Origin: an uncultured Planctomycetia bacterium
GTDB lineage: Bacteria; Omnitrophota; Gorgyraeia; 1-14-0-20-64-10
Assembly: GCA_964597545.1 (NCBI GenBank)
Contig: CAZQXN010000005.1
Coordinates: 12,647-76,646, forward strand
Direction: 5' to 3'
Length of the DNA: 64,000 bases
The position numbers were made by a program, and so were the translations under genes. Every line of letters starts with the position of its first letter. Position 1 is the stretch's first letter. Below, one piece after another: positions 19,663 through 53,577 of this stretch. The notes under the pieces are model-generated. The model had not been told where the DNA came from, did not search any database, and was given only the letters and a program-made list of their open reading frames with translations.

Positions 19663-20957
19663 TCCTCTTGCCTCACAAGCTGGAGCAACGGAATGGGCCG
19701 AGAAGCCACCTCTCCCATAACGGATGAGCCAGGAATGCGCACATTGATTTGAGCCCCCTCGAATAATTTCTGACCGCGGCACTCAAGGTATTGCTCCTTC
19801 CAGGAGGTCACGATTTCGATGGGGAGCACTACCTTCACCAGCGCGGATCCACCCTCCCTGCCCTTCTCGGCGCTTAAGACCGTGATGGTTTTGGCTGCGT
19901 TTTCGTCGGCAGTCTGAACCTCAGGGTGATCCGGGTAAAGCCGCGCCAGATCCAAATCGCTCAAGCCGGAAAATCGCAGTACCACCACCGCTCTTGTTGA
20001 GATAGAGCTTTTCGGGGGCGCCAAAGCACCCTTTTCAAGCACTGCCTCTGCGCCATCGGGACGGGTTACCTTCAACGGCAGCCAACCTGGGGCTGAAGGT
20101 CGAAACGGGTGCGGCAGAGTGGCTTTGAGCACCGATGGGCTTAACCGCTGCACCTCTTGCAAAGAAACATCGCCCAGGGTAACCTCGCAACCCTTTCGGA
20201 AATCAGATCCCAGGATCAGCAGCTGCCGCACCTGAGCATCAATCCGATTGGGGCGCACCAATCGGACAGAGAGAGCGGTCTCTTTCTCGGTGGCCGCGGA
20301 GCTTAAGGTGTCGGTTCGGCTTTTGGTGGCAATTCCCTGCCAATGTGCGGTTTCTTCATTGGCATTGGTGACGGTTACGTAATACAAGTCCTGCGTAAGC
20401 CTCTCACCCACAATGGCCTCCAGCCGCGTGGTGCTTTGATGAACGAACCCCAGCACGGGAAATGAATCAATCGCTACCCTGCAATCGGGACCGAAATAAT
20501 CTCCCTTGATGACCAGGAGGGTTGTGTCCATTGTGGTGGGCAGCACCTCCACCTGAGAAATGGAAGGTGCCCAAACCACCTCGAAGGCCTCCTCCAAGAG
20601 CACAAAGCGGCCTCGGCCGTTTCGGATGCCGAGCCGGAAGATCCCCTCCGGGAATTCCTTGGGAATCCCGATGTCAATCCAAACCTTGTTGACAAAGGTG
20701 ACGTTCGCAAACGGAAGGTGGCCCAACTGAGCGGCGGTTTGCCGGTCAAAACCGGTTCCAAGGACCGTTAACTTGTCGGTTTCGCCAGTCACGACACGCC
20801 TGGGAGAAACCTTCTGGATGGCCAACTCCCGTTGCCCCTTTAGGCTTTGCAAACCAAAAACAAGCATCGGCCAAAGCAAGGTCAATAAGAGCAGGCCGGC
20901 CAGGTCTAGGACGTGAATCTTTCCCAGCAATCGCCCCTGAGGATCAACGAGCCGCAA
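19659..20957 (-). CDS. DUF4330-family protein, paralog
   Basis: 432 aa. N-terminus MRLVDPQGRLLGKIHVLDLAGLLLLTLLWPMLVF parallels the 17225 gene. Repeated beta-rich segments. Confidence 0.6.
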   Translation of the reverse strand: MRLVDPQGRLLGKIHVLDLAGLLLLTLLWPMLVFGLQSLKGQRELAIQKVSPRRVVTGETDKLTVLGTGFDRQTAAQLGHLPFANVTFVNKVWIDIGIPKEFPEGIFRLGIRNGRGRFVLLEEAFEVVWAPSISQVEVLPTTMDTTLLVIKGDYFGPDCRVAIDSFPVLGFVHQSTTRLEAIVGERLTQDLYYVTVTNANEETAHWQGIATKSRTDTLSSAATEKETALSVRLVRPNRIDAQVRQLLILGSDFRKGCEVTLGDVSLQEVQRLSPSVLKATLPHPFRPSAPGWLPLKVTRPDGAEAVLEKGALAPPKSSISTRAVVVLRFSGLSDLDLARLYPDHPEVQTADENAAKTITVLSAEKGREGGSALVKVVLPIEIVTSWKEQYLECRGQKLFEGAQINVRIPGSSVMGEVASRPIPLLQLVRQEE

Positions 20958-21912
20958 AGCGCCCCCTCTCGGAGTCTGCGCACCCCCTGTTCAGCCCAGC
21001 GAAGAAGTTCACGACGTTCTGGGCACAGCGCAGCTCCATGGCTGCCCGGGAAGCCTGAGTCAATGAGGAGATGTGGGGCGTGAGGATGGCCTGAGGCATC
21101 TGGGCGAGTGGACCTTGGTACGGTTCGACCTGAAAGACATCCAGAGCCGCCCCTGAGAGGTGGCCTGATTGAAGGGCTTCAGTCAGGGCGACCTCATTCA
21201 CAAGATGCCCCCGGGCGGTATTGACCAAGCGGGCCCCAGGTTTCATGAGGGCAATTTCTGCTTTGTCCAGCAGGGGTCCTGCGTCCGGTTTGCGAGCAGC
21301 ATGCAGAGACACCACATCTGAGCGGCGAAGCAGCTCTTCGAGGGGAACCATGGCGACTCCGCTCGGCACCCCCTGCGCATTGACCTGGGGGTCGGTGGCG
21401 AGGAGGGTGGGTCCGAACGGCCGCAGCAGCGCCGCCGTAGCTCGGCCAATCCGCCCCAGACCTACCAAGCCGATTGTCCACTCCGAAAGGAGGTGGCCTG
21501 TCTCTTTGCGCCAGCGGCCCTGCCGAAAATCATGCAGGTGGCAAGAGAGGTTCCGGGCCAAAGACAAAATCATTGTAACGGCAAGCTGAGCAACCGCTGA
21601 AACCACTTCATCCGGAGTGGTTAGAATCTCGATCTTGTGGTGTCGAGCCGCCTCCAAGTCAATGGAATCGGTCCCGGTGCCGCAGCGGCTGATGCAGCGC
21701 AGTTCCGGAAGGGCCTGAAGTATCTCTGAATCGTAAGGCTCCACTCCAGCCAAAACCGCTTGGGCACCCCGCAGCTCCCTGGCCACCTCCTCCCGGCGCA
21801 ATCGATGACCCAGGGTGTTGCGCCGGAGGCTCAACCCTGCGGTATTGAGGAGCTCAAGGGGACGGTTGTCAGTTTCGCAAAACTGTTGGAGTGCAATATA
21901 AACTGATGGCAC
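20944..21912 (-). CDS. D-isomer-specific 2-hydroxyacid dehydrogenase (PGDH/LDH-D family)
   Basis: Catalytic/NAD domain GLVGLGRIGRATA and RGHLVNEVALTEAL...LDVFQVEP. Start re-placed at the in-frame GTG at 21912 (MPSVYIALQQF...), 5 nt after the upstream gene stop, giving a ~322 aa protein. The 492 aa track ORF N-terminus is a low-complexity over-extension overlapping the 21921 gene. Confidence 0.75.
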   Translation of the reverse strand: MPSVYIALQQFCETDNRPLELLNTAGLSLRRNTLGHRLRREEVARELRGAQAVLAGVEPYDSEILQALPELRCISRCGTGTDSIDLEAARHHKIEILTTPDEVVSAVAQLAVTMILSLARNLSCHLHDFRQGRWRKETGHLLSEWTIGLVGLGRIGRATAALLRPFGPTLLATDPQVNAQGVPSGVAMVPLEELLRRSDVVSLHAARKPDAGPLLDKAEIALMKPGARLVNTARGHLVNEVALTEALQSGHLSGAALDVFQVEPYQGPLAQMPQAILTPHISSLTQASRAAMELRCAQNVVNFFAGLNRGCADSERGRFAAR

Positions 21913-21920
21913 CTGCGGCC

Positions 21921-23069: not shown

Positions 23070-23781
23070 AGTTGTACCACTGGAAAAAAGTCTCGGCGAT
23101 CTGGAAACCGGATCGCCTGAAAAGCTCTAGATCTTCATCGATTTGAAACGGTATCAAAACGTTTTCCAAGGCTTCACGCTTTCGCACGATCTCCTCGTTG
23201 CTGTAGCCGTTTCTCTTCTTGAAGGCGTAATAATTCTCGATGAACAGCCGGTTCATCTCGCCGCTGCGGGTCAGCACCTTCTCTGTCACAATGAATGCTC
23301 CGCCGCTGACCATCGATTGGTAGATGTGGCGGATGAGGCGGTCCCTGTACAGGGGGCGAACAAACTGAAGGGTCCAGCAGAGGGTAACAACGCTGGCATT
23401 TTCGAGGGAGAGATCGGGGTCGCTGATGTCCCGGCAGTGGATCTCGATCTGCTGTTCCAACTTCCTCTCTCTAACATGGGTCTTGGCCTGCTGAACCATC
23501 GGCTCCGAGCTGTCGTAACCCACCAACCGGGCCGATGGATCCTGAAGTATCTGGGCAGCGTTGATGAGCGTTGTTCCGGTGGAGCAACCCAGGTCGTAGG
23601 CCCGGGTGCCGGGGAGATAAAACTGCTTGGCCAACTCCTGAATCAGCATCTGCTGCTCCCGGTAAAAAGGGACGCTTCGGACCAACATGTCATCGAAGAC
23701 AGCGGCCACCTCACTGTTGAATTCGAAGTCGCTCCCTCGAGAAGCGGTACCCTGAAACACCTGATCTTTGCTCTTTTGCAT
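23038..23781 (-). CDS. cmoA: carboxy-S-adenosyl-L-methionine synthase homolog (CmoA family)
   Basis: Colinear similarity to E. coli CmoA over the full length: FNSEVAAVFDDMLVRSVPFY / PGTRAYDLGCSTG / ENASVVTLCWTLQF / SGGAFIVTEK / FKKRNGYSNEEIVRKREALENVL / FQWYNFVGF. ATG at 23781 is preceded by a GGAAAGGGG SD-like sequence. Confidence 0.8.
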   Translation of the reverse strand: MQKSKDQVFQGTASRGSDFEFNSEVAAVFDDMLVRSVPFYREQQMLIQELAKQFYLPGTRAYDLGCSTGTTLINAAQILQDPSARLVGYDSSEPMVQQAKTHVRERKLEQQIEIHCRDISDPDLSLENASVVTLCWTLQFVRPLYRDRLIRHIYQSMVSGGAFIVTEKVLTRSGEMNRLFIENYYAFKKRNGYSNEEIVRKREALENVLIPFQIDEDLELFRRSGFQIAETFFQWYNFVGFLCVKND

Positions 23782-23904
23782 GATTGCCTTGCCCCTTTCC
23801 TGCTGCCTCACTGAAAAGAAATCAAACTGCATTCCCTCAACTTCACCGCCGTTTTGAGAACCTTCTCAAAGGGCTCCTCGTTGGCTTGAGTGACATCATA
23901 GAGT

Positions 23905-24813
23905 TCATCTGGTTTTCCTTGCGGAGGGATTCGCAGGTTGTTTCAGAAGGGAGCCTTCTATTACCGACTCAGTATAAGCTCCGGGGTTTCCCTTGTCTAG
24001 GTCTTTAAAAACAGCCTGCTGCAGGGGATCCGCCTCCAAGCAGCGACGCACTTCCGGGATCTCGCGCTGCTCATTGATGCCGCTGTAGCCTCTGGTGAAC
24101 GAAACGCTCATGAGTAGCACTTCATGTTCTACAATTCGGTTCTGATCGATGGATTCGGCTCGTTCCAGGGGGGTACGTGCAAGAGCGCTGTAGCGCCCCA
24201 GGAAATCTTTCCGATAAGCCAAAATCCCAAGAATTCGTCGCAGGGGTCCCGACGCTTCTCCCGCAGGCAGCGGCAAATGAGAGAAGTCGCGCGCGCACAC
24301 CAAAATGCGGCCCGACACTGAAAGGGCGCATTTCACGATCGATCGGTCCGCAAGCTCCTCACCCCTCTCAATCCTGGCCACCGCATTCCACGCAGGGATC
24401 TCCGGCCGCTCCTGGATCGCCTGAACCAGGCGCTCCAAATCGGAGGGAAGCACCAGGATCTCATCTCCTTGAACATTGACGACATGGGTGCAGTCCAAAG
24501 CTTGGGCCGCCTCCGCAACTCGGTCTGTGGCAGCGGGATGCTTGGGCGAGGTCATGAGCACCTGGCCTCCATTTTTCTCAACGACAGCTGCGATTTGGCG
24601 ATCACAGGTGGCGACCACGACGGTAGAAAATCCGCGGCACATCAGGGTACGCCTCCGAACATGCTCAATCATCGGAAGCCCCAAAATCTCCAGGAGGGGT
24701 TTCCCGGGCAGCCGCGAAGAGCCCATTCGAGCAGGGATAACAGCTGCAATTCGAATCATTGAACGCATCATCACACCTACTGGGGTAACGTCCCGCAATC
24801 TATATTGAGGCAC
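23905..24813 (-). CDS. KdsB-like cytidylyltransferase (CMP-ulosonic acid synthetase family)
   Basis: IAAVIPARMGSSRLPGKPLLEILGLPMIEHV matches the KdsB/CMP-Kdo synthetase N-terminal motif. Real start probably an internal M (MIRIAAVIPAR). Confidence 0.75.
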   Translation of the reverse strand: MPQYRLRDVTPVGVMMRSMIRIAAVIPARMGSSRLPGKPLLEILGLPMIEHVRRRTLMCRGFSTVVVATCDRQIAAVVEKNGGQVLMTSPKHPAATDRVAEAAQALDCTHVVNVQGDEILVLPSDLERLVQAIQERPEIPAWNAVARIERGEELADRSIVKCALSVSGRILVCARDFSHLPLPAGEASGPLRRILGILAYRKDFLGRYSALARTPLERAESIDQNRIVEHEVLLMSVSFTRGYSGINEQREIPEVRRCLEADPLQQAVFKDLDKGNPGAYTESVIEGSLLKQPANPSARKTR

Positions 24814-25541
24814 TGGCCGGTGATGGCCGATGCACCCTGAGAAACCAAGAAGTAAACAACCTCAGCGACCTCCTCGACCTTGGGCAATCGGCCCAGAGCA
24901 GTCTGGGTGGAGGCAAAGTTGGACAGATACGCCTCAACGGTTTCGCCCGCCGCAGGAGAAACCGGCTCCCGGAGGGCGGCATGGATCTGCTCGGTTTCCA
25001 CGTAGACCGGACAGACGGCGTTGACACGAATTCCCTTGGGCCCAAGCTCCTTGGCCAGCGACTGGGTGATGCCGTTGACCGCAAACTTGGCGGCGCAGTA
25101 AGCGCTGTTGTTGGTTGAGCCGCGCTTGCCCGCCAGAGAGGAAACGTTGACAATGACTCCTCCTGTGGGCATCCCCTCGGCTGCAGCTGCGCACCCCCAC
25201 AGGGTACCCAAGAGAGAAGTCTCAATCACCTTCTGGACGAAGAGCTCATCAATGTCATGCAGCGATTTCCAACGAGACACCCCCGCGCAGTTGATGAAGA
25301 CGTCCAAAGAACCGAAACGCTCCCTGGCGGCGCGAACAAAGCGGTGCATCCCATCCCGCTGCCGGACATCGACCCGCTCATGAAAAATCCCCTTAGGCAG
25401 CGGGGGTTGCGGGGTTGCGCGCGAGCAAACCGCCACTTGATCGCCCCGGTTGCAGAAAAGTTCCGCAATCGCCCGGCCGATCCCCCGGCTGCCGCCGGTG
25501 ATCACCACACCCCTGCTCTTTTGAGCTTGGTTCTCCTCCAT
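24777..25541 (-). CDS. SDR-family oxidoreductase
   Basis: TGGSRGIGRA cofactor motif and YCAAK catalytic motif. Confidence 0.8.
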   Translation of the reverse strand: MEENQAQKSRGVVITGGSRGIGRAIAELFCNRGDQVAVCSRATPQPPLPKGIFHERVDVRQRDGMHRFVRAARERFGSLDVFINCAGVSRWKSLHDIDELFVQKVIETSLLGTLWGCAAAAEGMPTGGVIVNVSSLAGKRGSTNNSAYCAAKFAVNGITQSLAKELGPKGIRVNAVCPVYVETEQIHAALREPVSPAAGETVEAYLSNFASTQTALGRLPKVEEVAEVVYFLVSQGASAITGQCLNIDCGTLPQ

Positions 25542-25549
25542 TGTGTCCC

Positions 25550-26308
25550 CTAGATTGTCATGGCGGTAAACCCGCCATCCACTGTAACCACCGAACCCGT
25601 TACGAAGCTGGAAGAATCTGAGGCCAACCAGACAACAGCCCCCACCAACTCGCTGGGTTTGGCAAACCGGTTCATTGGGGTGTGCCCCAAAATCTTCTCT
25701 TTTCGTTCCGCATCAATGAAATGCTTCATGCTCCACTCGGTCGGAAGAAAACCGGGCTTGAGTGCGTTGACGCGAACGTTAAAGGGGGCCCATTCCCGCG
25801 CCAGATTCTGCGTCAGGTTCAACACCCCTGCCTTGGCAGCCGAATAGACGAATGCCCTGGACAAGGGAGGGTCGGCAGAGACCGACGTGAAGTTGATGAT
25901 GGAACCAGACTTCTGCTTGATCATGGTCTCTCCGAATACCTGACAGGCATAGAGCGTACCGCCCAGATTCACGCCGAGAATCCAGTCGATCTCCTCTTGA
26001 GTAATCTCGAAGAACGGCGTCGGCGCATTGGCTCCAGCGCCGTTGAGGAGCAGATCCACCCGTCCATGCTTGGCGAGGATCTCTTCTCGACAGCGGATGA
26101 GTCCCTCTTTTGAAGTCACATCGCACGACAGGACATCAACGGATGCGGGCACGCCGGCTTTGCGCGCCTGCTCCTCGGGCGCCGCATCCAAAACCGTCAC
26201 GGCCACCCCGGCTTCATCCAACGCTTTGGCCAGGGTGGAGCAGATGTATCCGGCGCCCCCCACGACAACGGCGCGCTTTCCCTTTAGATTGAACCGATCA
26301 TTTGACAT
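25550..26308 (-). CDS. SDR-family oxidoreductase
   Basis: VVGGAGYICS Gly-rich motif and YSAAK catalytic motif. Confidence 0.8.
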   Translation of the reverse strand: MSNDRFNLKGKRAVVVGGAGYICSTLAKALDEAGVAVTVLDAAPEEQARKAGVPASVDVLSCDVTSKEGLIRCREEILAKHGRVDLLLNGAGANAPTPFFEITQEEIDWILGVNLGGTLYACQVFGETMIKQKSGSIINFTSVSADPPLSRAFVYSAAKAGVLNLTQNLAREWAPFNVRVNALKPGFLPTEWSMKHFIDAERKEKILGHTPMNRFAKPSELVGAVVWLASDSSSFVTGSVVTVDGGFTAMTI

Positions 26309-26933
26309 GGGCTTGTACCAGTTCTTTAAAATGAGTTACGTCCTTTCCGACAGCACCAAAATGGACCCCTGCGGCTTGAGCTGCCCGGGAATCCTCTTGA
26401 GTGTCCCCAAAGAAAACGATTTCTTCCGGCCGCCAGTTTTTACTCTTCTGTAGCTCTTTTAACCACAAGGACTTCTCAACCGGAGCCCCCCGAATCTGAC
26501 GGAAGTATTCCATCCAACCCCTCTGCTTCAAAATCTCCAGGAGCACCTGGTGCGGCGTACTTGAGAGCAGCCCTGTCCAATGGGTTTCCTGCACGTGACG
26601 CAAAAAATCCAAAGCCCCCGGAATCTCGCGAGCCCGAATGATTTGGCCGGTCGTCTCAGCCTCAAAACAGCGGTGAAGCTTGGCGTCCACTTCGGGGGTA
26701 TAGGGCAGTTTCAGAATTGTCTCGTAGACCGTGCGAAACTTAACATCCCTGGGTGTATGGTGATGGTTGTTGCAGTAAGCCAGGATCTCCTCCTGTCTCT
26801 GCGGAAAATCATCAAATACCCGCTCAAACGCCCGTGCCTTGATGGGATTGGAATCGACCAGGGTGCCGTCGAAATCAAAAACCAATCCCCGCGCGCGGGC
26901 AAACCGGCACTGAACCTCCGAAGCCCCTGACAT
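26298..26933 (-). CDS. HAD-superfamily phosphatase (subfamily IA)
   Basis: Motif I LVFDFDGTLVDS and C-terminal FFGDTQED. Confidence 0.7.
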   Translation of the reverse strand: MSGASEVQCRFARARGLVFDFDGTLVDSNPIKARAFERVFDDFPQRQEEILAYCNNHHHTPRDVKFRTVYETILKLPYTPEVDAKLHRCFEAETTGQIIRAREIPGALDFLRHVQETHWTGLLSSTPHQVLLEILKQRGWMEYFRQIRGAPVEKSLWLKELQKSKNWRPEEIVFFGDTQEDSRAAQAAGVHFGAVGKDVTHFKELVQAHVK

Positions 26934-26936
26934 GAT

Positions 26937-27737
26937 TTAAACCTTTTCCTCCTGACGAACCCCTTGGATCAAACTGCGCATCCGCTCCCCCCACTTCCAA
27001 AGCAGGAACACATCTGAGGCCAAAACCACAAAGGTGTACCCGCCCTCAAGGGCGGCTTGAACATTTTGGGCATTGGGATCAACGATCTGTGTCCCGCAGG
27101 CCTTACCTGCCCTGCGGCAGGCCTGAGCAACTTGCGCACAAGCCTGGGTCACCTTGGGATGATTCAGCTGACCCGGCACCCCCACCGAGCCGGAGATGTC
27201 ATAGGGTCCCGCCATCAGACCGTCGACCTCCGGAAGATCCAACAGGGATTCCGCAGCCTCAACTCCGGCCAGGGATTCAATCTGCAAGATCAGGACTGAG
27301 CGCTCGTTCCAACGCTCTACATAGGCATCAAAATCAAAACCATAGGTATGCGCTCGAGCCACCCCGAAGGAGCGCTTCCCTGCAGGCGGATATTTGCACC
27401 AATCGATGAGCTGCTTGGCTTCGCTGACCGTGGAGACATTGGGGGCAATGATCCCGTCGGCCCCGCTGTCGAGTAGACGCCTGACCATCTCTCCATTGTG
27501 GGAGGCAATGCGGGGAAGACACGGCAAACCACCCGCCTGGGAGGCAGAGATGATGGCCTGTGCCTGCTCCATGGAGATGGTGCTGTGCTCCAAATCGATG
27601 CCGATCCAGTCGACCCCGGAGCGGACAAATGCCTCCGTAATGGATGCGTGCCCCAGGGAAGTCCAACCGCCAAAAAGGGGTTCACGGCTTCTGAACCGCT
27701 TGCCGATGCCTTGATCCTGCTCTATGCCGCTCTTCAT
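26937..27737 (-). CDS. HpcH/HpaI-family class II (2-keto-acid/pyruvate) aldolase
   Basis: 266 aa. GGW..LGHASITEAFVRSGVDWIGIDLEH.. pattern typical of the HpcH/HpaI/GarL/YfaU fold. Confidence 0.75.
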   Translation of the reverse strand: MKSGIEQDQGIGKRFRSREPLFGGWTSLGHASITEAFVRSGVDWIGIDLEHSTISMEQAQAIISASQAGGLPCLPRIASHNGEMVRRLLDSGADGIIAPNVSTVSEAKQLIDWCKYPPAGKRSFGVARAHTYGFDFDAYVERWNERSVLILQIESLAGVEAAESLLDLPEVDGLMAGPYDISGSVGVPGQLNHPKVTQACAQVAQACRRAGKACGTQIVDPNAQNVQAALEGGYTFVVLASDVFLLWKWGERMRSLIQGVRQEEKV

Positions 27738-28897
27738 CTTGCACCCTCCTCACGTAGAAATTGAAGGAGCTCTCCCGCAGACCGCTCCATGCTAAAACGG
27801 TGTGCGGCTTTGGGTCCGTTGGTCCGGAGGCGTTCGCGCAAACCAACATCCTCCACCATCCGCACAATCTGGCGGTGCAGAGAATCGGCGCAGCCGGGCT
27901 CGGCCAACAGGCAGTTCTCTCCGTCTGCCGCATATTCCTTCACCCCCTCTACAGCCGTCGTCACCAGTGCCGCACCCGATGCCATGGCCTGTAGAGGCGG
28001 AGCCGGGAATCCATCGTACCGGCTGGGATAAACAAAGATATCGCTCTCCCGAAGCGCATCGGCATACGCGGCGCCATGCAGGTAGCCAAGGTTTTGATCG
28101 AACACCTTGGCCTGCTCCGGGGTGACCCTTCCAACGGAGCGGAGGGTCAGCTGATCACGCACCTGCTTCAAACGACGAAGCGCCTCCACTCCGATCTCCC
28201 TGCCCTTTTGAACGTTGGGATCGCAGTAAAGGGTCACAACCAAGGTCAGGCGATCTGCCTGGTGGGTCGGCGGCCGAAAAAGTGCTAGGTCGACCCCTCC
28301 GGGAATCATCCTGCGAATTGGAATTCCCAGGCGCTCACAGGCCTCCTGCGCCTCAGCGCTTGTGGTAAGCCGAGGGGCGGTAAAGGTGCGCTCCATCTCA
28401 ACCCAATGCTCGAACCAAGCCGCCGCCGCGGGATTGGGGGAGCGCATGGCGCGCTCGAGGTTGACGTGAATCACTGAAACCATCTTGCGCGGGGAGTCGC
28501 CCATCGACTTGAGAAGATGCGGCATCAGGTAAGGAGGATGAACCACAGTAACGCTGTTCTCCTTCCAGCGCTTCGCAGAAGGGACCAGCCCATAACAGCG
28601 GGCTTTCACCCGAGCATCAACCGCATGGTACCGCAATCCGCTCCAGCGCCTCCGAAAGAGCATCTCAAATGGCAGCGCCAACACCAGCTTTGCCCCCCAG
28701 AACCATTTGCGCCATCCCCTGCGTTGGCTTAAAACAAAACGCTTAAAATCCCACCAGTCCACCGCCGGAAAAAGAACAGTCGTGGGCACCCCTTGTCGAA
28801 CAAAAATGTTGGCGGTGTCCGCAGCAATCCGGGTGACAGAGCCGCGGCGATTATGCGAGAGGAGCATCTGCACCGAGAACTGACCGTTTCCCTTCAC
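27734..28897 (-). CDS. GT4-family (GT-B) glycosyltransferase
   Basis: C-terminal DIFVYPSRYDGFPAPPLQAMASGAALVTT with the E-x7-E-like motif. Confidence 0.8.
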   Translation of the reverse strand: MKGNGQFSVQMLLSHNRRGSVTRIAADTANIFVRQGVPTTVLFPAVDWWDFKRFVLSQRRGWRKWFWGAKLVLALPFEMLFRRRWSGLRYHAVDARVKARCYGLVPSAKRWKENSVTVVHPPYLMPHLLKSMGDSPRKMVSVIHVNLERAMRSPNPAAAAWFEHWVEMERTFTAPRLTTSAEAQEACERLGIPIRRMIPGGVDLALFRPPTHQADRLTLVVTLYCDPNVQKGREIGVEALRRLKQVRDQLTLRSVGRVTPEQAKVFDQNLGYLHGAAYADALRESDIFVYPSRYDGFPAPPLQAMASGAALVTTAVEGVKEYAADGENCLLAEPGCADSLHRQIVRMVEDVGLRERLRTNGPKAAHRFSMERSAGELLQFLREEGAR

Positions 28898-28899
28898 CC

Positions 28900-29769
28900 C
28901 TACACCTTCCCCCTGAGGCGCCGCACAACGTTTGCAAGCCCTCCTCGCCAGCGAGAGGAAAAGACCATATCCCGCCGGTCTTCGATCCGAACCGAACCGG
29001 GCTGCTTCCCCCGCAGGGAGACTCCAACGGCAGTTTCAGCCGTTCCGGTTTCCGGAAGGTAACATTCCCGCGGCAGATAGCGATTTTCTCGGCCGCCCAA
29101 CACCATGTGGTTCCGGTAGATCTGGATCTGGGCCTTGGGCCGTTGGCCTCGAATGCGCTCAATCAACTCCTCAAGATTCAGCACAAGATACGGCATCCAA
29201 CCATCGTAGTGATACTGGCAGGAACGCTCTGGGTCCAGCTCTGTTTTTCCGCTGTCCCGAGTTCGCGTCCTTAGGATCAGGGTTTCCTCGGCCGAGCGCA
29301 GCAGCCCAACCAAGAAACCCCATGGGTCTACTTGATGATGCATGACATCCTTCGAATAGACGATTTTCCAACCCAGCCCCTTTCCCCACGCAGTGAGATT
29401 CTCCTGCAGGGTCTTGGCCGGGTCCCCCAGGCAAAACTGGGCCTGGGGATATTTGCTCCTTGCCCGATCCAAAGCAACCGGGGAGATGTCCACTCCAGCG
29501 TAGGTGAGGCTGGGGTAGCGGTACTTGAGGTAACGGTAAAACTCTCCCGTAGCACACCCCATCTCCAGGAGCTTACCCTCTGTGCCGCTGGGATACCACT
29601 CCCGAAGTAGGCTGACATCGTTGAATGACTCGTAATTTTTCAGCAGGTCCGAGACGCCCAAGGAGGAGCGGCGATCAAAGCTGCGAGCATGCTTCTGATG
29701 GCTCCAGTCGGAGAACCACTTGGAAGGAGCACCTGCCGCATGCGCTTGTGTTTCGACCTCACCGCTCAT
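28900..29769 (-). CDS. class I SAM-dependent methyltransferase
   Basis: LLEMGCATGEFYRYL SAM-binding motif I. Confidence 0.7.
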   Translation of the reverse strand: MSGEVETQAHAAGAPSKWFSDWSHQKHARSFDRRSSLGVSDLLKNYESFNDVSLLREWYPSGTEGKLLEMGCATGEFYRYLKYRYPSLTYAGVDISPVALDRARSKYPQAQFCLGDPAKTLQENLTAWGKGLGWKIVYSKDVMHHQVDPWGFLVGLLRSAEETLILRTRTRDSGKTELDPERSCQYHYDGWMPYLVLNLEELIERIRGQRPKAQIQIYRNHMVLGGRENRYLPRECYLPETGTAETAVGVSLRGKQPGSVRIEDRRDMVFSSRWRGGLANVVRRLRGKV

Positions 29770-30503
29770 CTGGATTCAAGGTTCGCAGGTTGCGTTCTCC
29801 GGTTCGAGGCGGTCAGCTTCTCGGCATCCCTGAGAAACATCCCAACGGTCTCTTTGCTGTAAGGATGAACCAACATCCCCTCCAAGAGTTTTGGAACCGC
29901 TGTCACGATGTCTGCCCCTGCCTCAAACCACTGGATGATGTTCAGCACCTCGCGGGTAGACCCCACGATGATTTTGGCGGAAGAACCAAATGCGTCCAGA
30001 AGCCCGCGCAGGCGGCGGATCTCAGCCGCGGAATCGTATCCCATGTTGTTCACCCGTCCCCCGAAGATCGAGACATAGGTCGCCCCCGCCATGGCCGCAA
30101 GCAGGCACTGCTGTGCCGACATCATGGCTGTGACATTGACTCGAATGTCCTCTTCGGCTTCAAGGCGGTGAACCAGCTCCAGATTTTCCGTTCCTCCCTC
30201 TGGGCCGTGGATCGGGATCTTGACGTTGATGTTCTTTGCCCACCCTGAAAAGGTCCGGGCCTCATTGAGCATCTGGTCCGATTCGTTGGTGGTCACCTCA
30301 ACGGAAACCGGCATAGGATCGATTCGGCGGGCAATCTCTCTGATGTGCCGCTCAATCCCTTCCCAACCCCCCTGCACACCATCCTTGACGAGGATCGTGG
30401 GGTTGGTGGTGACTCCGCGGATGATCCCGAGGTGATGGTACCTGTCGATTTCATCCAGCTTGCCTGTATCCAAAAAAATCCCAGTTAAATGTATGCCATT
30501 CAT
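29766..30503 (-). CDS. transaldolase-family protein (fructose-6-phosphate aldolase/TalC-like, short form)
   Basis: 245 aa. GVTTNPTIL motif and overall FSA-like length. Confidence 0.75.
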   Translation of the reverse strand: MNGIHLTGIFLDTGKLDEIDRYHHLGIIRGVTTNPTILVKDGVQGGWEGIERHIREIARRIDPMPVSVEVTTNESDQMLNEARTFSGWAKNINVKIPIHGPEGGTENLELVHRLEAEEDIRVNVTAMMSAQQCLLAAMAGATYVSIFGGRVNNMGYDSAAEIRRLRGLLDAFGSSAKIIVGSTREVLNIIQWFEAGADIVTAVPKLLEGMLVHPYSKETVGMFLRDAEKLTASNRRTQPANLESR

Positions 30504-31126
30504 TCTTTTTGAGCTCCTTCAAAGACTGCGGTCGATTCCCACTTGTTCCCCTGAACCATCAGCCGCGGATCACACACCAAACCATGCCAGACCACAGCCT
30601 GAAAGGCCTCTGTGTGCGGCGTTGTGTTGTTGGGGTTGACGGTAGGAACCACCAAGACATGGGTTCCCTCATGTTTGGCAGCGCCCCCATCCCTGCCGAC
30701 AATTCCCAGAATGTCCATCTCCCGGGTGCGTGCCTCGTCGATGGCAGCGACAAGATTGGTGCTGATGTTGCGTTGGCGAGAGCCCCCTCCAACCGAAAGG
30801 ACAAAAAGGGCATCCCGGCTGCCTGCGCGGCTGGTCTTGAGCCACTCGGAAAAGACCGTTTCCCACCCCTCATCGTTGGTTCGGGCAGTCAGCTCTGCCA
30901 CGTTGTCGGCCGGGGTATAGGCTTCAATTCCGGCGAGCTTGCGAAAATCGCAGACTGCATGAGAACAGTTCCCTGCCGAACCCCCAACACCAACCAGAAA
31001 GAGCCGCCCCCCTTCCTGGCGAAGGCGAACGAGCCGTTCTACGATGCGGTCGGCGGCCTCACGATCCAACTGCTGCGCCACCTGACCGACCTCTTCAAAA
31101 TATTGATCTAAGAATGCCTTGCTCAT
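30500..31126 (-). CDS. SIS-domain sugar-phosphate isomerase, GmhA-like (sedoheptulose-7-phosphate isomerase family)
   Basis: 208 aa. GRLFLVGVGGSAGNCSHAVCDF and LSVGGGSRQ...ILGIVGRDGG colinear with GmhA. Confidence 0.75.
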   Translation of the reverse strand: MSKAFLDQYFEEVGQVAQQLDREAADRIVERLVRLRQEGGRLFLVGVGGSAGNCSHAVCDFRKLAGIEAYTPADNVAELTARTNDEGWETVFSEWLKTSRAGSRDALFVLSVGGGSRQRNISTNLVAAIDEARTREMDILGIVGRDGGAAKHEGTHVLVVPTVNPNNTTPHTEAFQAVVWHGLVCDPRLMVQGNKWESTAVFEGAQKE

Positions 31127-31145
31127 CTTCTTTTATCTTTACCTC

Positions 31146-32840
31146 CTAACCTGATGGAACTTCATCCATAGACACGAGGGACCTCTGACGCTGCAAATCG
31201 TTGTCCACCCGTCTGGCATCTTCCAAGGAGTGAATCTCAGACCAACCCTGCCCAATCTCCATCCCCGCCACCGGGAAGCCGTCCTCCAGCAGATACTGAA
31301 GAAGATCGGTCAAGTCGGCCTGGACAACAGACTCGGCCTCATAGAAGGGTTTCCCGGCAAAGTCATGCTGGACGCGGTCCCAAGCCGCCACCAGCGCCCG
31401 AGTCCCCCCTGAGCGCAAAAAGGCCAAACCGATGAACTCATGTGAAGCCCGGCTGGAATCGATCTTCTGACCGATAGCGGAAATCGGTCTAAAGGGATTC
31501 CAGCGGAGATTGCGCGAAGGGGCGGTAAGCTGCGGCTGAGCCACCACCAAATCCAACGCCTTGGCTCGAGGGGGCAAGTCGCCGAAGGCTCGATCTATCA
31601 CCAAGGTAATGGGGTGCGGGCTCGCTAAGAGCTGCTCTAAGATCTTCTGATCAAAGAGGATGTCGGAGTAGGCGATCAACGCTTCACCCTTGAGGTTATC
31701 TCGAGCCACCAGGATCGATTGGGCGCATCGCCCCGCAGGATAGTCAGGGTTGTGCAAGAGCTGGCAACCGGGCGCCTTGATCTTATCGTGCTGGTATCCA
31801 CCCACCACCGCTATCCGCTCCACACCGCAGGAACGAATGAGATCGGTCTGGCGCTCCAAAACGGTTTTACCTCCCAGCTCCAACATGCAGAGGGGCTTAT
31901 CCTGGAGCAGTTCCTTTAAATCCGATTGAAAACGATGGTCGCGGGCAGCAGGAATCACCGCCTGGATCTTCCTGTGTTTCGAGAATCGTTTCTCCTCCTC
32001 TTTGAGGGCGGGCAACCCTTGAATCTCAAAAACCTCCCGGAGGGTGGAGATCTGATCCTCGATCACAGCGGTAGAGCCGGTCTGGTCGATGCGCTGCAAA
32101 ACTTCCTCCATGGCGCGGATCGAAGCCCTCAGGCCATGGTTGGCATAGATCACCATCCGGAAGCCGTGATCCGCCAGCTCCTGTGCGGTCACCCCGCCAT
32201 AGGTGGTCGGAATGGCCACCAACGGCACCTTCCCCTTGAATGCCCGCGCAAAGGAAAAGATTTCATCCGCAGTGGGAGCTTTTGAATGGATGACGATGCC
32301 GTCTGCCCCGGCCGCCTCGTAGGCGTGGGCGCGTCGAAGCGCCTCAGCCATCCCCTGCCCCGCAATGAGCGCCTCCACCCGGGCAAAAACCATGAAGCCA
32401 GGATCACTCTGGGCGTTCTTTGCCGCCTCGATCTTACCGGCAAACTCCTCAACGGGGGAGAGCTCCTGTCGGGCAGCAATCAGGGAATTTGTTTTAGGAA
32501 AACGCTTATCCTCAATCACCACTGCAGCCAGCCCCGCTGCCTCGAAGCGCTTGACCATGTGCATGACCTGGGTGGCATTCCCGTAGCCGGTGTCGCAATC
32601 GCAGACAACCGGCAGGCAGGAGGCCTCATTGATGTTTCTGGCCGCCTCCAAGTTCTCGGTCATGGTGAGAATATTGGCGTCCGGCAGGGCATGCGCCGTT
32701 GAAATCTCAAGACCGCTTGCCCAGATTCCATCAAAGGAGTGACGCCCAATGAGCTTCGCCCCTAAGCCGTTGTGGGCTCCCACAATTCTTAAGATCTGTT
32801 TCTCTTCAAAGAGGGCCCTCAAGTGCGCTGCTTTGCTCAT
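31146..32840 (-). CDS. bifunctional phosphoenolpyruvate phosphomutase / nucleotidyltransferase (LicC/PntC-like cytidylyltransferase) fusion
   Basis: N-terminal PEP mutase/isocitrate lyase fold with the PepM-diagnostic EDKRFPKTNS (EDKX5NS) and CDCDTGYG. C-terminal AVIPAARDHRF...KPLCMLELGGKTVLERQ NTP_transferase domain. Confidence 0.8.
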   Translation of the reverse strand: MSKAAHLRALFEEKQILRIVGAHNGLGAKLIGRHSFDGIWASGLEISTAHALPDANILTMTENLEAARNINEASCLPVVCDCDTGYGNATQVMHMVKRFEAAGLAAVVIEDKRFPKTNSLIAARQELSPVEEFAGKIEAAKNAQSDPGFMVFARVEALIAGQGMAEALRRAHAYEAAGADGIVIHSKAPTADEIFSFARAFKGKVPLVAIPTTYGGVTAQELADHGFRMVIYANHGLRASIRAMEEVLQRIDQTGSTAVIEDQISTLREVFEIQGLPALKEEEKRFSKHRKIQAVIPAARDHRFQSDLKELLQDKPLCMLELGGKTVLERQTDLIRSCGVERIAVVGGYQHDKIKAPGCQLLHNPDYPAGRCAQSILVARDNLKGEALIAYSDILFDQKILEQLLASPHPITLVIDRAFGDLPPRAKALDLVVAQPQLTAPSRNLRWNPFRPISAIGQKIDSSRASHEFIGLAFLRSGGTRALVAAWDRVQHDFAGKPFYEAESVVQADLTDLLQYLLEDGFPVAGMEIGQGWSEIHSLEDARRVDNDLQRQRSLVSMDEVPSG

Positions 32841-33802
32841 GGGATTTTCCTCGCGACGAATCGTGCAAACGAGCTTAACCCCCGCCTTTGAAGGAACCCT
32901 TGGAACTCCTGGCGCGTGGCATCATCGGCTTCAATCAACTGCCGGTCAAAACCGGACAGCGCCAGGGCAGGATCCTGCAAGCGGTGGGCACGGACGATCT
33001 CCAAATCCAATACCCCGGGAGTGGAAACCTCCAGTAGGTCAAACCCGGCCCCTTCCAATAAAACCTCCAATCCCTTACGGGTAAAGCAGTTGGTTCGATC
33101 TGGGGGACAGAGATAAAGGTTCTTTGCCCCCAACACCGCCATGTCATACCCGGAAAAAACCAAGGCCGTTACAAAGAGCAATCCCTTCTCGCTTAAATGC
33201 GAGCGAACCCTGCTCAGCAGAGAGGTCGGATCATCAACGCGGTCGAGAGATTCCGGCAGAATTGCCGCTTCAAAAGATCCTGCTTCGGGGCCCCACCCAT
33301 GGGCCAAGGCCATCTCGTCGGCCAAAGAAACAGCGCTCAAGGATGAACTGGCCTGAAGCAAGGTGTTCAGCTCGCTGGGTGGACTGTTGACCTCCAGAAG
33401 GCGCGCACTTAAGGTCCCCTGCAGACGAAGCGCCTCCTCGATCCATTCAAGCTTCGGGTGGTGAACATGGTCAACTCTGGAATCGGCCAGCGCCTGATGA
33501 AAACCGTCGGGCGAATGACGCAAACGGCTCGCCTCAGCCAGCACCCCTGCCCAAACTTTCGGCTCGGGGATTTCCACGAGAAAGACCGAACCGCTCATGG
33601 GACAGCGAGCATAATCCAAGCCGCCAATACGGCCATAGGGCAAGAGCCGCTCGCCGGATACCGGAGAGACTTGGCGTCGGCGGGCGCCGGAACGCAGAGC
33701 CTGTCCGGCAATCTCCAGGCAGCGTTGCCGGTACTGCTGCAGTCGCTCCAAGGGTTTGACCGCACCCAGAGGGAACCGGACCTCGGTCTGGATCGTTCTC
33801 AC
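32837..33802 (-). CDS. hypothetical protein, probable class I methyltransferase fold
   Basis: 321 aa. Weak MT-like C-terminal half (LLFVTALVFSGYDMAVLG). No confident motif. Confidence 0.35.
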   Translation of the reverse strand: MRTIQTEVRFPLGAVKPLERLQQYRQRCLEIAGQALRSGARRRQVSPVSGERLLPYGRIGGLDYARCPMSGSVFLVEIPEPKVWAGVLAEASRLRHSPDGFHQALADSRVDHVHHPKLEWIEEALRLQGTLSARLLEVNSPPSELNTLLQASSSLSAVSLADEMALAHGWGPEAGSFEAAILPESLDRVDDPTSLLSRVRSHLSEKGLLFVTALVFSGYDMAVLGAKNLYLCPPDRTNCFTRKGLEVLLEGAGFDLLEVSTPGVLDLEIVRAHRLQDPALALSGFDRQLIEADDATRQEFQGFLQRRGLSSFARFVARKIP

Positions 33803-34821
33803 CTCGCCCCTCCTTTCAGGGAAGGCTCCCGAGAAAAACTGTAGGCGTCCCGGATGATCTCCATAACTGCCAGCGCCTCTTCAAGCGTTCCATGGGTCGC
33901 CGCACGGTTCTCCTGTGCTGCAGCAATGAACTCATCCACCTCTGCCTTCCAGGAATCATCCCGGTCAAAGGTGATCAACTCCTCTCGGGGATTTCCCAAT
34001 GCCATGGCTTCATCCTCGAACTGACGGCGGCCAATGACCAACTGCTCCCTACCGTAACTCCCAGATTTTGAGAGCAGCCCCTGGGCTACCAGATAACCAT
34101 TCTGGCACCCCATCTGAAGTTCAAAGGTGTGCTTCCAGAGTGTTGCCGAAGAGTGCAAAAAGGCGGGGATACCACCTGCAGAGCGCATCAGCACAAAGGC
34201 ATTGTCCTCCACCCCGCACTTCCAGAAAGAGTCGTTCAAAACCGCCTCTACCACCTTGAGCGGCCCCAGAAAGAGCTGGAAAAGATCCAGCATGTGGATC
34301 CCCTGATCCAGCAAAATCCCCCCTCCAGAAACCACAGCTCTGTTTCGCCAACTCTGCCGGTACTCAACTCCGCCCGACTTGCCGTAACTGCCCTTGACGT
34401 AAAGGATCTCACCCAAACCCCCTTCCCCGACCAGCGCCTGGGCAGCCTGGATAGAGGGGTGCAAGCGGTGGTTGAAGCCAAAGACAAGGGTGCACCGGGA
34501 AACCGAAGATGCAGCCTCTTGGATCTTCTGGAGGTCCTCCCAGTTCCTTCCGGGTGGTTTCTCGCAGAAAACACGGCCGCACCGCCTAAGGGCTTGAGCC
34601 GTCAATTCGGCTGTAACGTCGTTGGGGGTGCATACAAAGACGGCGTCGACCGACTCCCAGGGAATCGGTTCCCCCTGGGCAATGAGCGCACCGGCCAACC
34701 CCGCTTCCGCCGGATCCACCCCAGGATCCACCACCCAGATTCGATCCACCTCGGGATGCGCCTTGAGGATCCGGTAGCGGATCTGGCCCATGTAACCAAA
34801 ACCAAAGATCAAGCAATTCAT
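33799..34821 (-). CDS. Gfo/Idh/MocA-family NAD(P)-dependent oxidoreductase
   Basis: N-terminal Rossmann LIFGFGYMGQ and CEKP motif. Confidence 0.8.
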   Translation of the reverse strand: MNCLIFGFGYMGQIRYRILKAHPEVDRIWVVDPGVDPAEAGLAGALIAQGEPIPWESVDAVFVCTPNDVTAELTAQALRRCGRVFCEKPPGRNWEDLQKIQEAASSVSRCTLVFGFNHRLHPSIQAAQALVGEGGLGEILYVKGSYGKSGGVEYRQSWRNRAVVSGGGILLDQGIHMLDLFQLFLGPLKVVEAVLNDSFWKCGVEDNAFVLMRSAGGIPAFLHSSATLWKHTFELQMGCQNGYLVAQGLLSKSGSYGREQLVIGRRQFEDEAMALGNPREELITFDRDDSWKAEVDEFIAAAQENRAATHGTLEEALAVMEIIRDAYSFSREPSLKGGAR

Positions 34822-38405: not shown

Positions 38406-39443
38406 TCAGAGCGAAAACTCCTTTCGAATCAGCTCAGCCGCCAAGGCAAATCCCGCGTCGGTCAGGTGGATGCGGTCAACAAACAACCACTGGGGCTGTT
38501 TGAAGGGATCCGAACCGTTCAAATCCAGGAAAGGAACCTCAAATTGATCGCAGAGCCGCTTTGCATCCGCCTGGAATTGATCTTTCCTTTGAGCCAAAAA
38601 AGAGAACAGTGTTTTGTTATACTCTGTACCGATCTGATTGAGGCAGCCAAACAGCTCCTCCTCCTCGGGCACCAACGCCTTGTTGAGCCAAGGGATGGCC
38701 GGCTGCAGAACAAAATAAAGTTTAAACCCAAGACTCTTCTGCAGCAGTGCCCATATGCGCAGGTCCCGCTCCATGCAAGCAAGCCCATCATCATAACGTT
38801 CCTCTGAGCTTCGGCTGGGGGAATCCGACTTACCGGGGACGAACTTCTGCGCGACCTCCTGGGCAAACTGCTGAAACGATCCTCGAACCCCTGTCATCTT
38901 GCCGCGCTTCAAACCCTGCTCAAAGATGGACTGGTAGTAGAAGGCGTTATAGACGGGCGAGGCACTCCCAGCCAGATGGGAGAGGACCAGGTGGTTGATG
39001 CCGGTAAACAACACCACCTGCGCCACATCCTTTGGCAAGTGAAGCAGAAAGATAATGACTTCCTGAGTCGAATTGAACGCTCGCCCTGAAAAATTAAACC
39101 ATGCCGTTGAACCTTTACGGTTCAACTGGCTCGCCAGGGTTGCTCCATCCGAGGAGGCCCCTATGCCAAAAGCAGAACTTGAACCCACCAGGGCTCCCCG
39201 CGGATGATCTCCTTCGTTATATGTCTTCAGGGTAAGGGGCTGGTCCTGCCAAAGGGTGCCGCGGAACCCGTGCTCATCTGTGGTGAATGAAGGGGTCTTC
39301 TGGTTCGGCTGGTGGAAGAACATGACATAGGGCAGCCACCGCTTCTCATCGAGTGCATCGTAATCTCGCATCTGAGGGACCAGGGCATAGCGACGTCCCC
39401 TTGGGGTCGCAAGAGAGGCTTCTGTCCCCATCGCAAGGCTCAT
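38406..39443 (-). CDS. SGNH/GDSL-like hydrolase (putative glycan O-acyl esterase/transferase)
   Basis: 345 aa. GSSSAFGIG (block I-like) and C-terminal DRIHLTDAG (block V DxxH). Confidence 0.45.
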   Translation of the reverse strand: MSLAMGTEASLATPRGRRYALVPQMRDYDALDEKRWLPYVMFFHQPNQKTPSFTTDEHGFRGTLWQDQPLTLKTYNEGDHPRGALVGSSSAFGIGASSDGATLASQLNRKGSTAWFNFSGRAFNSTQEVIIFLLHLPKDVAQVVLFTGINHLVLSHLAGSASPVYNAFYYQSIFEQGLKRGKMTGVRGSFQQFAQEVAQKFVPGKSDSPSRSSEERYDDGLACMERDLRIWALLQKSLGFKLYFVLQPAIPWLNKALVPEEEELFGCLNQIGTEYNKTLFSFLAQRKDQFQADAKRLCDQFEVPFLDLNGSDPFKQPQWLFVDRIHLTDAGFALAAELIRKEFSL

Positions 39444-49135: not shown

Positions 49136-49147
49136 GCTCCTTGCCTC

Positions 49148-50775: not shown

Positions 50776-50788
50776 GGTCTAACGGGAC

Positions 50789-51838: not shown

Positions 51839-51859
51839 CGCCGTCGCTCCGCTCCCTGC

Positions 51860-53575: not shown

Positions 53576-53577
53576 CT

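Follow-up and report, generated by a model that had tools for sequence, protein, structure and literature searches.

The equilibrium of the PEP mutase (PepM) reaction lies more than 500-fold on the side of PEP and, for this reason, each phosphonate pathway needs a sink coupled to the mutase. To our knowledge, only four such sinks are established or accepted, namely phosphonopyruvate decarboxylase (Ppd), the FrbC-type synthase, the PalB-type transaminase and the VlpB-type reductase. Fom1, in which a PEP mutase is fused to a cytidylyltransferase activating a later phosphonate intermediate (HEP), works together with the decarboxylase Fom2. At the gene level, ppd adjoins ppm in about 83% of neighbourhoods (Li and Horsman 2022), and about 33% of all mutases with the EDKX5NS motif carry a PF12804 domain (Rice 2019, PMC6697681). 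The gene described here (31146..32840, minus strand; 564 aa), identified by Pfam, NCBIfam and PDB matches as a fusion of a PEP mutase with a nucleotidyltransferase-fold domain (PepM-NT), is embedded in a large single-strand surface-glycan locus. It lies within a 64-kb stretch of a MAG contig which was analysed as a whole, also for partner genes, and is referred to as the window. Like the Ppm-PF12804 fusions, it combines an N-terminal EDKX5NS mutase and a C-terminal PF12804 domain in one polypeptide, and it shares their family-wide variant motif AAxD...P[LFM]xML; family members 55-72% identical to it are abundant. The architecture itself is thus already known, and a sequence-only reading of this DNA which had considered the fusion notable overrated a feature common to a third of these mutases. 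The analogy to Fom1 drawn in that reading is poor as well. Although Fom1 likewise joins a PEP mutase to a cytidylyltransferase, its transferase domain belongs to another family (PF01467) and is N-terminal, while that of the window protein is PF12804-like and C-terminal; furthermore, the Fom2 partner is absent from the 64-kb window.

Among solved structures, the mutase domain (aa 4-294; 31959..32831, minus strand) is best aligned to PEP mutase 5UNC with 334 bits, compared to 256 bits for phosphonopyruvate hydrolase. Pfam assigns PEP_mutase to aa 7-251 (194 bits) and NTP_transf_3 to aa 314-407 (42.5 bits, cut-off 27). The PepM-diagnostic EDKX5NS motif is present as EDKRFPKTNS (aa 110-119; 32484..32513, minus strand), at which position phosphonopyruvate hydrolase shows EDKTFPKDTS in the alignment. 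The sequence-only reading had named a loss of catalytic residues as an observation that would speak against a genuine mutase. Alignment to Mytilus PepM, however, reveals identity at all 14 active-site residues considered (W44, S46, G47, L48, D58, D85, D87, E114, K120, N122, S123, L124, R159 and H190). Judged by motif, best structural match and active site, this domain is, as had been proposed, a genuine and catalytically intact PepM predicted to convert PEP to phosphonopyruvate. Its score against the NCBIfam PEP_mutase equivalog TIGR02320 amounts to 314.0 bits and is marginally below the cut-off of 319.55; still, this is the top NCBIfam family for the domain, Pphn_pyruv_hyd reaching 279 bits versus its own cut-off of 374. 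The start codon of the fusion gene overlaps with the stop codon of an upstream Methyltransf_23 gene (32837..33802, minus strand) in an ATGA sequence, which indicates that PepM-NT is translationally coupled into an operon. We regard this upstream gene, which is also present in PepM-free cassettes, as context only.

The C-terminal domain (aa ~289-557; 31170..31976, minus strand) is confidently predicted to adopt the PntC/LicC fold. Its closest solved folds are those of Tde1415 PntC-AEPT (6PD1/6PD2) and of S. pneumoniae LicC (1JYK). A profile search against the PDB yields E values of 2.5e-13 for LicC and 8e-7 for PntC, and Foldseek, run with an AF2 model of the domain (pLDDT 90.5), ranks PntC-AEPT 6PD2 first (E 1.2e-14, TM 0.71) and LicC 1JYK fifth, the latter with a target-normalised TM of 0.82. 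In Tde1415, however, PntC is fused to AEPT instead of a mutase, and identity to PntC/LicC amounts to about 17%. In the profile alignment, the signature GXG(T/S)RX4-8PK is replaced by the variant N-terminal sequence AARDHRFQSDLKELLQDKPLCML (31881..31949, minus strand), with Asp in place of the essential R15 and Leu in place of the essential K25 of PntC; the Pfam match to the domain starts only at profile position 15. Similarly, the acidic residue which binds the amine of the ligand (Glu104 in PntC, Asp105 in LicC) is exchanged for an invariant tyrosine, Tyr391, within the segment YSDILFD (31650..31670, minus strand). As signature and amine-binding acid are both missing, a cytidylyltransferase activity of this domain on AEP is not established. 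Hence, of the earlier proposal that the LicC/PntC-like C-terminus produces a CMP-phosphonate, the fold is retained while a CMP-AEP-type activity is not substantiated by the residues aligned. Of the 120 closest homologue clusters, 43 show Arg instead of the first Gly of the signature, and the window protein belongs to them. Since the variant signature also occurs in Ppd-linked relatives from bacteria and archaea, it does not represent an adaptation to a missing Ppd. An assignment as heptose or sugar-1-phosphate nucleotidyltransferase, an idea arising from the nearby SIS, TAL, GHMP and HAD genes, was rejected, as PntC/LicC are the nearest matches of both fold and profile and as PepM and this domain are inherited together in all contexts. 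In the literature searched, we found no paper characterising a Ppm-fused PF12804 or PntC domain, nor anything relevant on the direct cytidylylation of phosphonopyruvate or on phosphonates of Omnitrophota.

The sequence-only reading had seen no phosphonopyruvate decarboxylase in the 64 kb, and this observation is borne out. A Pfam scan of about 50 ORFs of the window detects no TPP_enzyme domain, and when all six frames were searched by tblastn for homologues of two Ppd proteins and one AEPT protein, the best E value was 0.27. Neither Ppd, AEPT nor Fe-ADH is encoded within 31 kb on either side of the fusion gene, and the adjacency of ppd and ppm that characterises canonical AEP/HEP clusters is accordingly lacking in the window. 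An MpnS-like gene and a separate canonical nucleotidyltransferase are absent from it, too. Among the same ORFs, Pfam reports no FrbC-type HMGL-like (PF00682) and no PalB-type Aminotran_1_2 (PF00155) domain, a sub-threshold PF00155 match being located under a DegT gene; vlpCDE-like genes and PGK- or GAPDH-like partners are likewise not found in the window. A scan with Rfam returns no RNA family at or above the gathering score. The two aminotransferase genes of the window, one DegT/PseC-like and the other a fusion of CTP_transf_3 with a GSA-aminomutase-like domain, belong to a pseudaminic-acid-like block which is separated from the PepM gene by more than 13 kb. Neither is of the PalB type, and the suggestion of an aminotransferase sink leading to phosphonoalanine is weakened.

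In a neighbour-joining (NJ) tree, the window protein groups with eight others in a Ppd-less clade (197 of 200 bootstraps) whose branch emerges from within a grade of relatives with linked Ppd. Its members, for the most part recovered from MAGs that carry the label Omnitrophota or Planctomycetia (among them the source MAG, JAHFFE01, JAHFFF01, CAYJUA01 and CAYJTM01), stem from at least nine independent contigs and have diverged to about 55-60% identity. While the closest relatives beyond the clade have ppd as the gene following PepM-NT downstream, an arrangement found in L005-L007, L013, L014, L017, L019, L021, L101, L102 and L103, tblastn detects no Ppd in the loci of the nine clade members (within 10 kb, or 31 kb for the window). 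Within 10 kb of these, AEPT is absent throughout and Fe-ADH is retained in two loci, L009 and L010. The topology indicates that the clade originated inside the Ppm-PF12804 family with linked Ppd when the neighbouring ppd was lost. Its ancestral context appears to be a HEP/methylphosphonate-type module composed of HTH-NT, an MpnS/HEPD-like protein, PepM-NT, Ppd and Fe-ADH, which is found in L101 and L102 and partly in L013. All genes of this module except that of Ppd are kept in L009 and L010, the Fe-ADH being 50-53% and the MpnS/HEPD-like protein 71-74% identical to their counterparts in Ppd-containing modules. In the other seven clade members Fe-ADH and the MpnS-like gene are both gone, and PepM-NT is all that is left of the module in the window. 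Taken jointly, a real PepM, phosphonylation of the glycan and a clade-level loss of the linked ppd are probable.

These observations also bear on the reading that no phosphonate is made at all and that the gene survives as a stranded relic of a HEP-type cluster or fulfils a non-mutase or regulatory function. The known partner enzymes are indeed all missing from the 64 kb, the equivalog score falls just short of its cut-off and the nucleotidyltransferase signature is degenerate. Yet, next to the complete active site of the window protein, the eight clade mates preserve theirs in spite of their divergence, the sole deviation being that Leu and Phe alternate at L124, as they do in Ppd-linked relatives. 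Together with the intact, translationally coupled reading frame, the number of independent contigs and the share of homologue clusters carrying the Arg motif, this points to long-term purifying selection. We therefore consider this reading very improbable.

The reading we favour, with a probability of roughly one in three, is that the sink acts in trans. PepM-NT would still feed phosphonate decoration of the surface glycan, and the unfavourable mutase equilibrium would be pulled by a decarboxylase encoded beyond the window, be it Ppd from an unlinked gene or a different ThDP enzyme. The product would be a non-amine phosphonate derived from phosphonoacetaldehyde, such as HEP, and the fused domain would activate this HEP-like phosphonate with a nucleotide for transfer. 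As homologues of the Fe-ADH and of the MpnS/HEPD-like protein act downstream of Ppd, their retention in L009 and L010 implies that phosphonoacetaldehyde is presumably still made there. Moreover, a substrate devoid of an amine, HEP for instance, would be in keeping with the invariant tyrosine found where PntC and LicC carry the amine-binding acid. Against a sink in trans speaks that no Ppd is found within 10 kb in the clade and that the window lacks Ppd, AEPT and Fe-ADH over 31 kb. In addition, among the Ppd relatives whose contigs measure 10 kb or more, all that could be checked, including two sampled because they were unmatched by any PepM-NT contig, are located beside PepM-NT or on the same contig, so that no orphan ppd was encountered among them. 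That seven of nine members have lost Fe-ADH and the MpnS-like gene gives less the picture of a split pathway than that of a system reduced to one self-sufficient gene, and nucleotide activation by a domain lacking the catalytic signature of proven cytidylyltransferases is a further difficulty. Should the genome contain ppd at some other site, this would be an ordinary phosphonoglycan locus whose pathway is split.

Compared to this sink in trans, we judge it only slightly less likely that phosphonopyruvate is reduced in cis to phosphonolactate, as proposed for VlpB of valinophos. The candidate reductase, suggested as a sink by the sequence-only reading, is a D-2-hydroxyacid dehydrogenase (20944..21912, minus strand; 322 aa, GTG start); in L009 and L010, the Fe-ADH adjoining PepM-NT could take over this role. 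The fused domain would then activate phosphonolactate, resulting in a carboxy-phosphonate decoration of the glycan. The dehydrogenase belongs to PF02826, the Pfam family by which VlpB-like branch points are called, it scores best against phosphoglycerate dehydrogenase models, and the literature accepts 2-hydroxyacid dehydrogenases as phosphonopyruvate sinks. Like VlpB, it is encoded in the locus of a Ppd-less PepM. Seven of the nine clade members (the window, L004, L010, L016, L100 and the contigs of L001 and L009) have an orthologue, either no more than 10 kb away or at least on the same contig; the Ppd-linked relatives examined have none. A stepwise loss of Ppd and then of Fe-ADH and the MpnS-like gene is also in accordance with a rewired pathway. 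Unlike in the VlpB system, however, the dehydrogenase gene of the window is nine genes away from PepM-NT, vlpCDE-like partners are lacking, and the enzyme is not co-inherited with PepM as a dedicated reductase. No orthologue is found within 10 kb of L008 and L012. The KdsB-like sugar-acid cassette to which the dehydrogenase belongs also exists with no PepM within 10 kb; it is intact in L098 and L099, and a part of it is seen in L097. In these loci, the dehydrogenase gene is translationally coupled to its direct upstream neighbour, which is KdsB-like in L097 and L099 and encodes a methyltransferase in the case of L098. In the dehydrogenase tree, PepM-containing and PepM-free contexts interleave. 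A metagenome scan with the dehydrogenase gave relatives of at most 40% identity, apart from one short, partial match on a 1.3-kb contig, which covers 82 residues at 68% identity. The rest of the sugar-acid cassette around PepM-NT (23905..31126, minus strand) comprises SIS_2, TAL_FSA, methyltransferase, GT4, HpcH aldolase, HAD, two SDRs and a KdsB-like cytidylyltransferase, and is taken as context or a possible acceptor pathway only. Since the cassette occurs without PepM, neither the dehydrogenase nor the HpcH aldolase, which had been put forward as well, is a dedicated sink, while opportunistic use of either is possible. As sinks, the aldolase and the two aminotransferases have no specific support, being part of PepM-independent sugar pathways.

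A third way to pull the mutase, which we rate as quite unlikely, would be that the fused domain itself traps phosphonopyruvate, e.g. by nucleotidylylation driven by pyrophosphate hydrolysis, so that one gene would supply an activated carboxy-phosphonate donor. It accords with this that in L008 and L012 glycosyltransferases are accompanied by PepM-NT as the sole small-molecule enzyme, that the position of PepM-NT varies between loci with no neighbour conserved clade-wide, and that a second, unrelated Ppd-less group from Scalindua (L023, L025 and L027) is solitary in glycan loci as well. Likewise, the fused domain is strongly conserved (38 invariant columns) despite its non-canonical signature and missing amine-binding acid, and G300R and C372 set apart the relatives with the Arg motif. 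Such a reaction is, however, without biochemical precedent, the variant signature is shared with Ppd-linked relatives, and the missing R15 and K25 equivalents could mean that there is no transferase activity whatever. The Arg substitution is found in the Ppd-bearing locus L101, too. We had also considered it as a marker of Ppd loss, for which a contig-length proxy gave 0/23 versus 27/38. In L101, however, Ppd directly follows a PepM-NT that has the Arg motif, which shows that the proxy misses cases, i.e. yields false negatives, and the marker was rejected. More broadly, the Ppd-less PepM-NT might be a single-gene phosphonate-entry module which traps phosphonopyruvate undecarboxylated, either through the fused domain or as phosphonolactate via a borrowed 2-oxoacid reductase, and gives rise to an undescribed carboxy-phosphonate decoration on Omnitrophota-like surface glycans; to this we attach a rather low probability.

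New compared to the known fusion architecture are the nine-member Ppd-less clade, the non-dedicated status of dehydrogenase and HpcH aldolase, and a fused domain devoid of signature and amine-binding acid. A well-supported clade, widespread in environmental samples, whose mutase is conserved and to which no known dedicated sink is linked, is a place to seek a fifth solution to the equilibrium problem, and it offers a route to the function of the PF12804 domain fused to so many PEP mutases. We would finally mention that a protein identical to that of the window (P0001) is present in an NCBI-derived collection, where it is encoded on an 85,349-bp contig.

The open reading frame at 31146..32840 (minus strand) encodes a fusion protein of 564 amino acids, whose type we designate PepM-NT in any locus. 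Its N-terminal part is recognised by Pfam as a PEP_mutase domain (residues 7-251, 194 bits) and harbours an EDKRFPKTNS motif of the EDKX5NS type (residues 110-119; 32484..32513, minus strand). The top solved relative is the PEP mutase 5UNC (334 bits), after which rank phosphonopyruvate hydrolase (256 bits), presenting EDKTFPKDTS at the motif position, and Mytilus PEP mutase (PepM, 228 bits). Alignment reveals that all of the 14 active-site residues of the Mytilus enzyme are identical in the window protein; the loss of catalytic residues, which the sequence-only reading had named as refuting its assignment, is thus not observed. With 314.0 bits the protein falls slightly short of the cut-off of the NCBIfam PEP_mutase equivalog (319.55 bits). 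The motif, the best structural relative and the retained active site bear out the prediction that the N-terminal domain is a genuine PEP mutase.

Residues 314-407 match the Pfam domain NTP_transf_3 (42.5 bits, cut-off 27). Since about 33% of EDKX5NS mutases carry PF12804 and 59.5% are fused to some other domain (Rice et al. 2019, PMC6697681), the fusion is not new; a Ppm-PntC fusion (Ppm being PEP mutase) is "often observed" (Li and Horsman 2022). In architecture the protein is a typical representative of a very widespread fusion family; more than 120 clusters with this architecture are 55-72% identical to it, and the nearest named genomes are MAGs that bear the label Candidatus Omnitrophota or uncultured Planctomycetia. 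The LicC/PntC-like fold proposed from the sequence proved right: a profile of 22 family members matches LicC (1JYK, E 2.5e-13) and PntC (6PD1, E 8e-7), and the AlphaFold model of the C-terminal domain (pLDDT 90.5) finds PntC-AEPT 6PD2 as top PDB match in Foldseek (E 1.2e-14, TM 0.71), with LicC reaching a target-normalised TM of 0.82. The proposed CMP-phosphonate activation fared less well. The signature GXG(T/S)RX4-8PK, whose Arg15 and Lys25 are required for the activity of PntC, FrbH and YgbP, is not retained; AARDHRFQSDLKELLQDKPLCML stands in its place, and in the profile alignment R15 of PntC faces Asp while K25 faces Leu. Furthermore, the amine-binding acid (Glu104 in PntC, Asp105 in LicC) is replaced by an invariant Tyr. 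AEP or another amine looks an unlikely substrate. The variant signature is common to every sampled Ppm-fused PF12804 domain at least 42% identical, from bacteria and archaea and with or without the phosphonopyruvate decarboxylase Ppd; the sampled relatives at greater distance, from actinomycetes and acidobacteria, lack it. Hence it is a trait of the branch, not a peculiarity of this gene. Strong conservation (38 invariant columns) indicates that the fused domain is probably functional, and our literature search found no published characterisation of a Ppm-fused PF12804 domain.

As claimed before, a phosphonopyruvate decarboxylase is absent from the 64 kb: Pfam or NCBIfam scans of about 50 ORFs spanning the window revealed no ThDP (TPP_enzyme), HMGL-like or PalB-type Aminotran_1_2 domain, and tblastn of two Ppd proteins and one AEP transaminase from related loci against all six frames gave a best E of 0.27, the search covering 64 kb of an 85,349-bp contig whose other 21 kb could still hold ppd. 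Among relatives, with gene contexts extending 10 kb to each side and mostly taken from MAG contigs of uncertain taxonomic label, ppd is the next gene downstream of PepM-NT in loci L005-L007, L013, L014, L017, L019, L021 and L101-L103, while it was not detected within 10 kb in the window, L001, L004, L008, L009, L010, L012, L016 and L100. In neighbour-joining trees built from tblastn-derived sequences the nine proteins without linked Ppd group as a single clade (197 of 200 bootstraps), nested within a grade of Ppd-linked relatives, for which a single loss of linked ppd would be the simplest reading. Across the clade the PepM active-site residues are kept, except for a Leu/Phe alternation at L124 that is common to Ppd-linked relatives. 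An Arg replacing the first Gly of the fused domain's transferase signature was considered as a marker of Ppd loss (contig-length proxy for Ppd on the same contig, 0/23 versus 27/38) and rejected; since L101 combines this Arg with Ppd, the proxy, which yields false negatives, was not relied on.

The ancestral context is presumably preserved in L101 and L102, where a module is made up of HTH-NT, whose signature is canonical, a protein of 241 aa, PepM-NT, Ppd and Fe-ADH, and in L013, which begins at a contig start and lacks HTH-NT only. Methylphosphonate synthase, HEPD and HppE are homologues of the 241-aa protein, which has half their size (6B9S, E 3e-40); the module is hence a HEP-type pathway. 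Within the Ppd-less clade, L009 (8102-12831) and L010 (8096-14437) retain HTH-NT, the MpnS-like gene (71-74% identical) and Fe-ADH (50-53% identical), the latter directly following PepM-NT; either Ppd acts in trans here or the module enzymes work on a non-decarboxylated phosphonate. Of the module, the window and the remaining six members retain PepM-NT alone. The protein belongs to a distinct, well-supported sublineage whose mutase stayed intact when the decarboxylase, and in most members the rest of the pathway as well, was shed. The genes retained in L009 and L010, whose homologues act after Ppd, favour an unlinked decarboxylase encoded elsewhere as the force pulling the mutase, and we give this reading a probability of roughly one third. 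Against it, seven of the nine members have lost every other gene of the pathway, and all checkable Ppd relatives on contigs of 10 kb or more adjoin or share a contig with PepM-NT, even the two picked for the lack of a PepM-NT contig matching them.

As local candidates for the sink, which might also lie outside the window, the sequence-only reading had named a 2-hydroxyacid dehydrogenase, an HpcH aldolase and an aminotransferase. The first is a D-2-hydroxyacid dehydrogenase of 322 aa (20944..21912, minus strand) identical to database protein P0121; it starts at a GTG at 21912, the mechanical ORF 20944-22422 (492 aa) overshooting it by about 170 codons. Dehydrogenase and aldolase belong to a minus-strand cassette (20944-34821) encoding GFO/IDH/MocA, Methyltransf_23, SIS_2, TAL_FSA, a methyltransferase, GT4, the HpcH aldolase, HAD, two SDRs, a KdsB-like cytidylyltransferase (200 bits versus the 193-bit cut-off of one KdsB subfamily model, NF003952), a further methyltransferase and the dehydrogenase. 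This cassette recurs in L001 and L010 and, without PepM within 10 kb, in L098, L099 and partly L097; in L098 and L099 Methyltransf_23 is directly followed by SIS_2, the slot filled by PepM-NT in the window and L001. Since, in addition, dehydrogenases from loci with and without PepM are intermixed in a neighbour-joining tree of their own, the cassette looks like an independent pathway to a CMP-ulosonic-acid-type sugar into which PepM-NT was inserted as an accessory, possibly an undescribed one in which a pyruvate (HpcH-type) aldolase replaces KdsA or NeuB. Dehydrogenase and aldolase are accordingly not dedicated phosphonopyruvate sinks. Nevertheless, seven of nine Ppd-less members have a dehydrogenase orthologue within 10 kb or elsewhere on their contig, and the Ppd-linked relatives examined have none; hence the acceptor is the sugar of the cassette, or else the cassette lends its reductase. 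This co-occurrence, and the acceptance of 2-hydroxyacid dehydrogenases as sinks in published work, favour reduction of phosphonopyruvate to phosphonolactate, by this enzyme or by Fe-ADH in L009 and L010, as an option only slightly less probable than the unlinked decarboxylase; against it speak the evident independence of the dehydrogenase from PepM and its absence near L008 and L012. The aminotransferases, DegT/PseC-like at 53578 and GSA-aminomutase-like at 46077, have no link to PepM; they are part of a pseudaminic-acid-like block (46077-54861) comprising PseG (159.8 bits, cut-off 153.55), a NeuB/PseI-like synthase, a formyltransferase, a GFO oxidoreductase and, as the 46077 gene, a 681-aa fusion of CTP_transf_3 with a glutamate-1-semialdehyde-aminomutase-like domain.

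In L008 and L012 PepM-NT is solitary amid glycosyltransferases, as it is in an unrelated Ppd-less group (L023, L025 and L027; Candidatus Scalindua and one Planctomycetota MAG) whose proteins are 46-47% identical to the window protein. Both would suit capture of phosphonopyruvate by the fused domain itself, which we consider unlikely: it has no precedent, and Ppd-linked relatives share the variant signature. That no phosphonate is made at this locus appears more improbable still, and the remaining probability falls to something unforeseen.

Essentially all of the about 50 credible genes of the window lie on the minus strand. In bins of 2 kb, GC skew stays negative from about 24 kb up to the window end, save for the bin at 44-46 kb, where it is near zero. 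ORF-poor stretches occur at 19782-20944, 39443-41226 and 54861-55805; no Rfam family reaches the gathering score across the whole window. Further genes encode a NeuB-SAF-CTP_transf_3 triple fusion of 590 aa (6165-7937) and a short NeuB-family ORF of 226 aa with only part of the domain (1085-1765). The block at 10215-19782 comprises a 655-aa unknown protein, an ABC exporter, asparagine synthase, a transglutaminase-like protein, DUF4330/TIG and a PMT_2-like membrane protein of 508 aa; parts of it are kept beside PepM-NT in L004, L016 and L100, and its PMT_2-like and DUF4330/TIG genes are also found in the PepM-free L097. Three B12-binding radical SAM genes (51860-53575, 58161-59777 and 61648-63237) lie in the glycan locus, accompanied by an HddA-like heptose kinase (60596-61651). 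Genes of this kind stand directly after PepM-NT in L023 and L025, both Scalindua loci, and are present in L009, L038 and L099.
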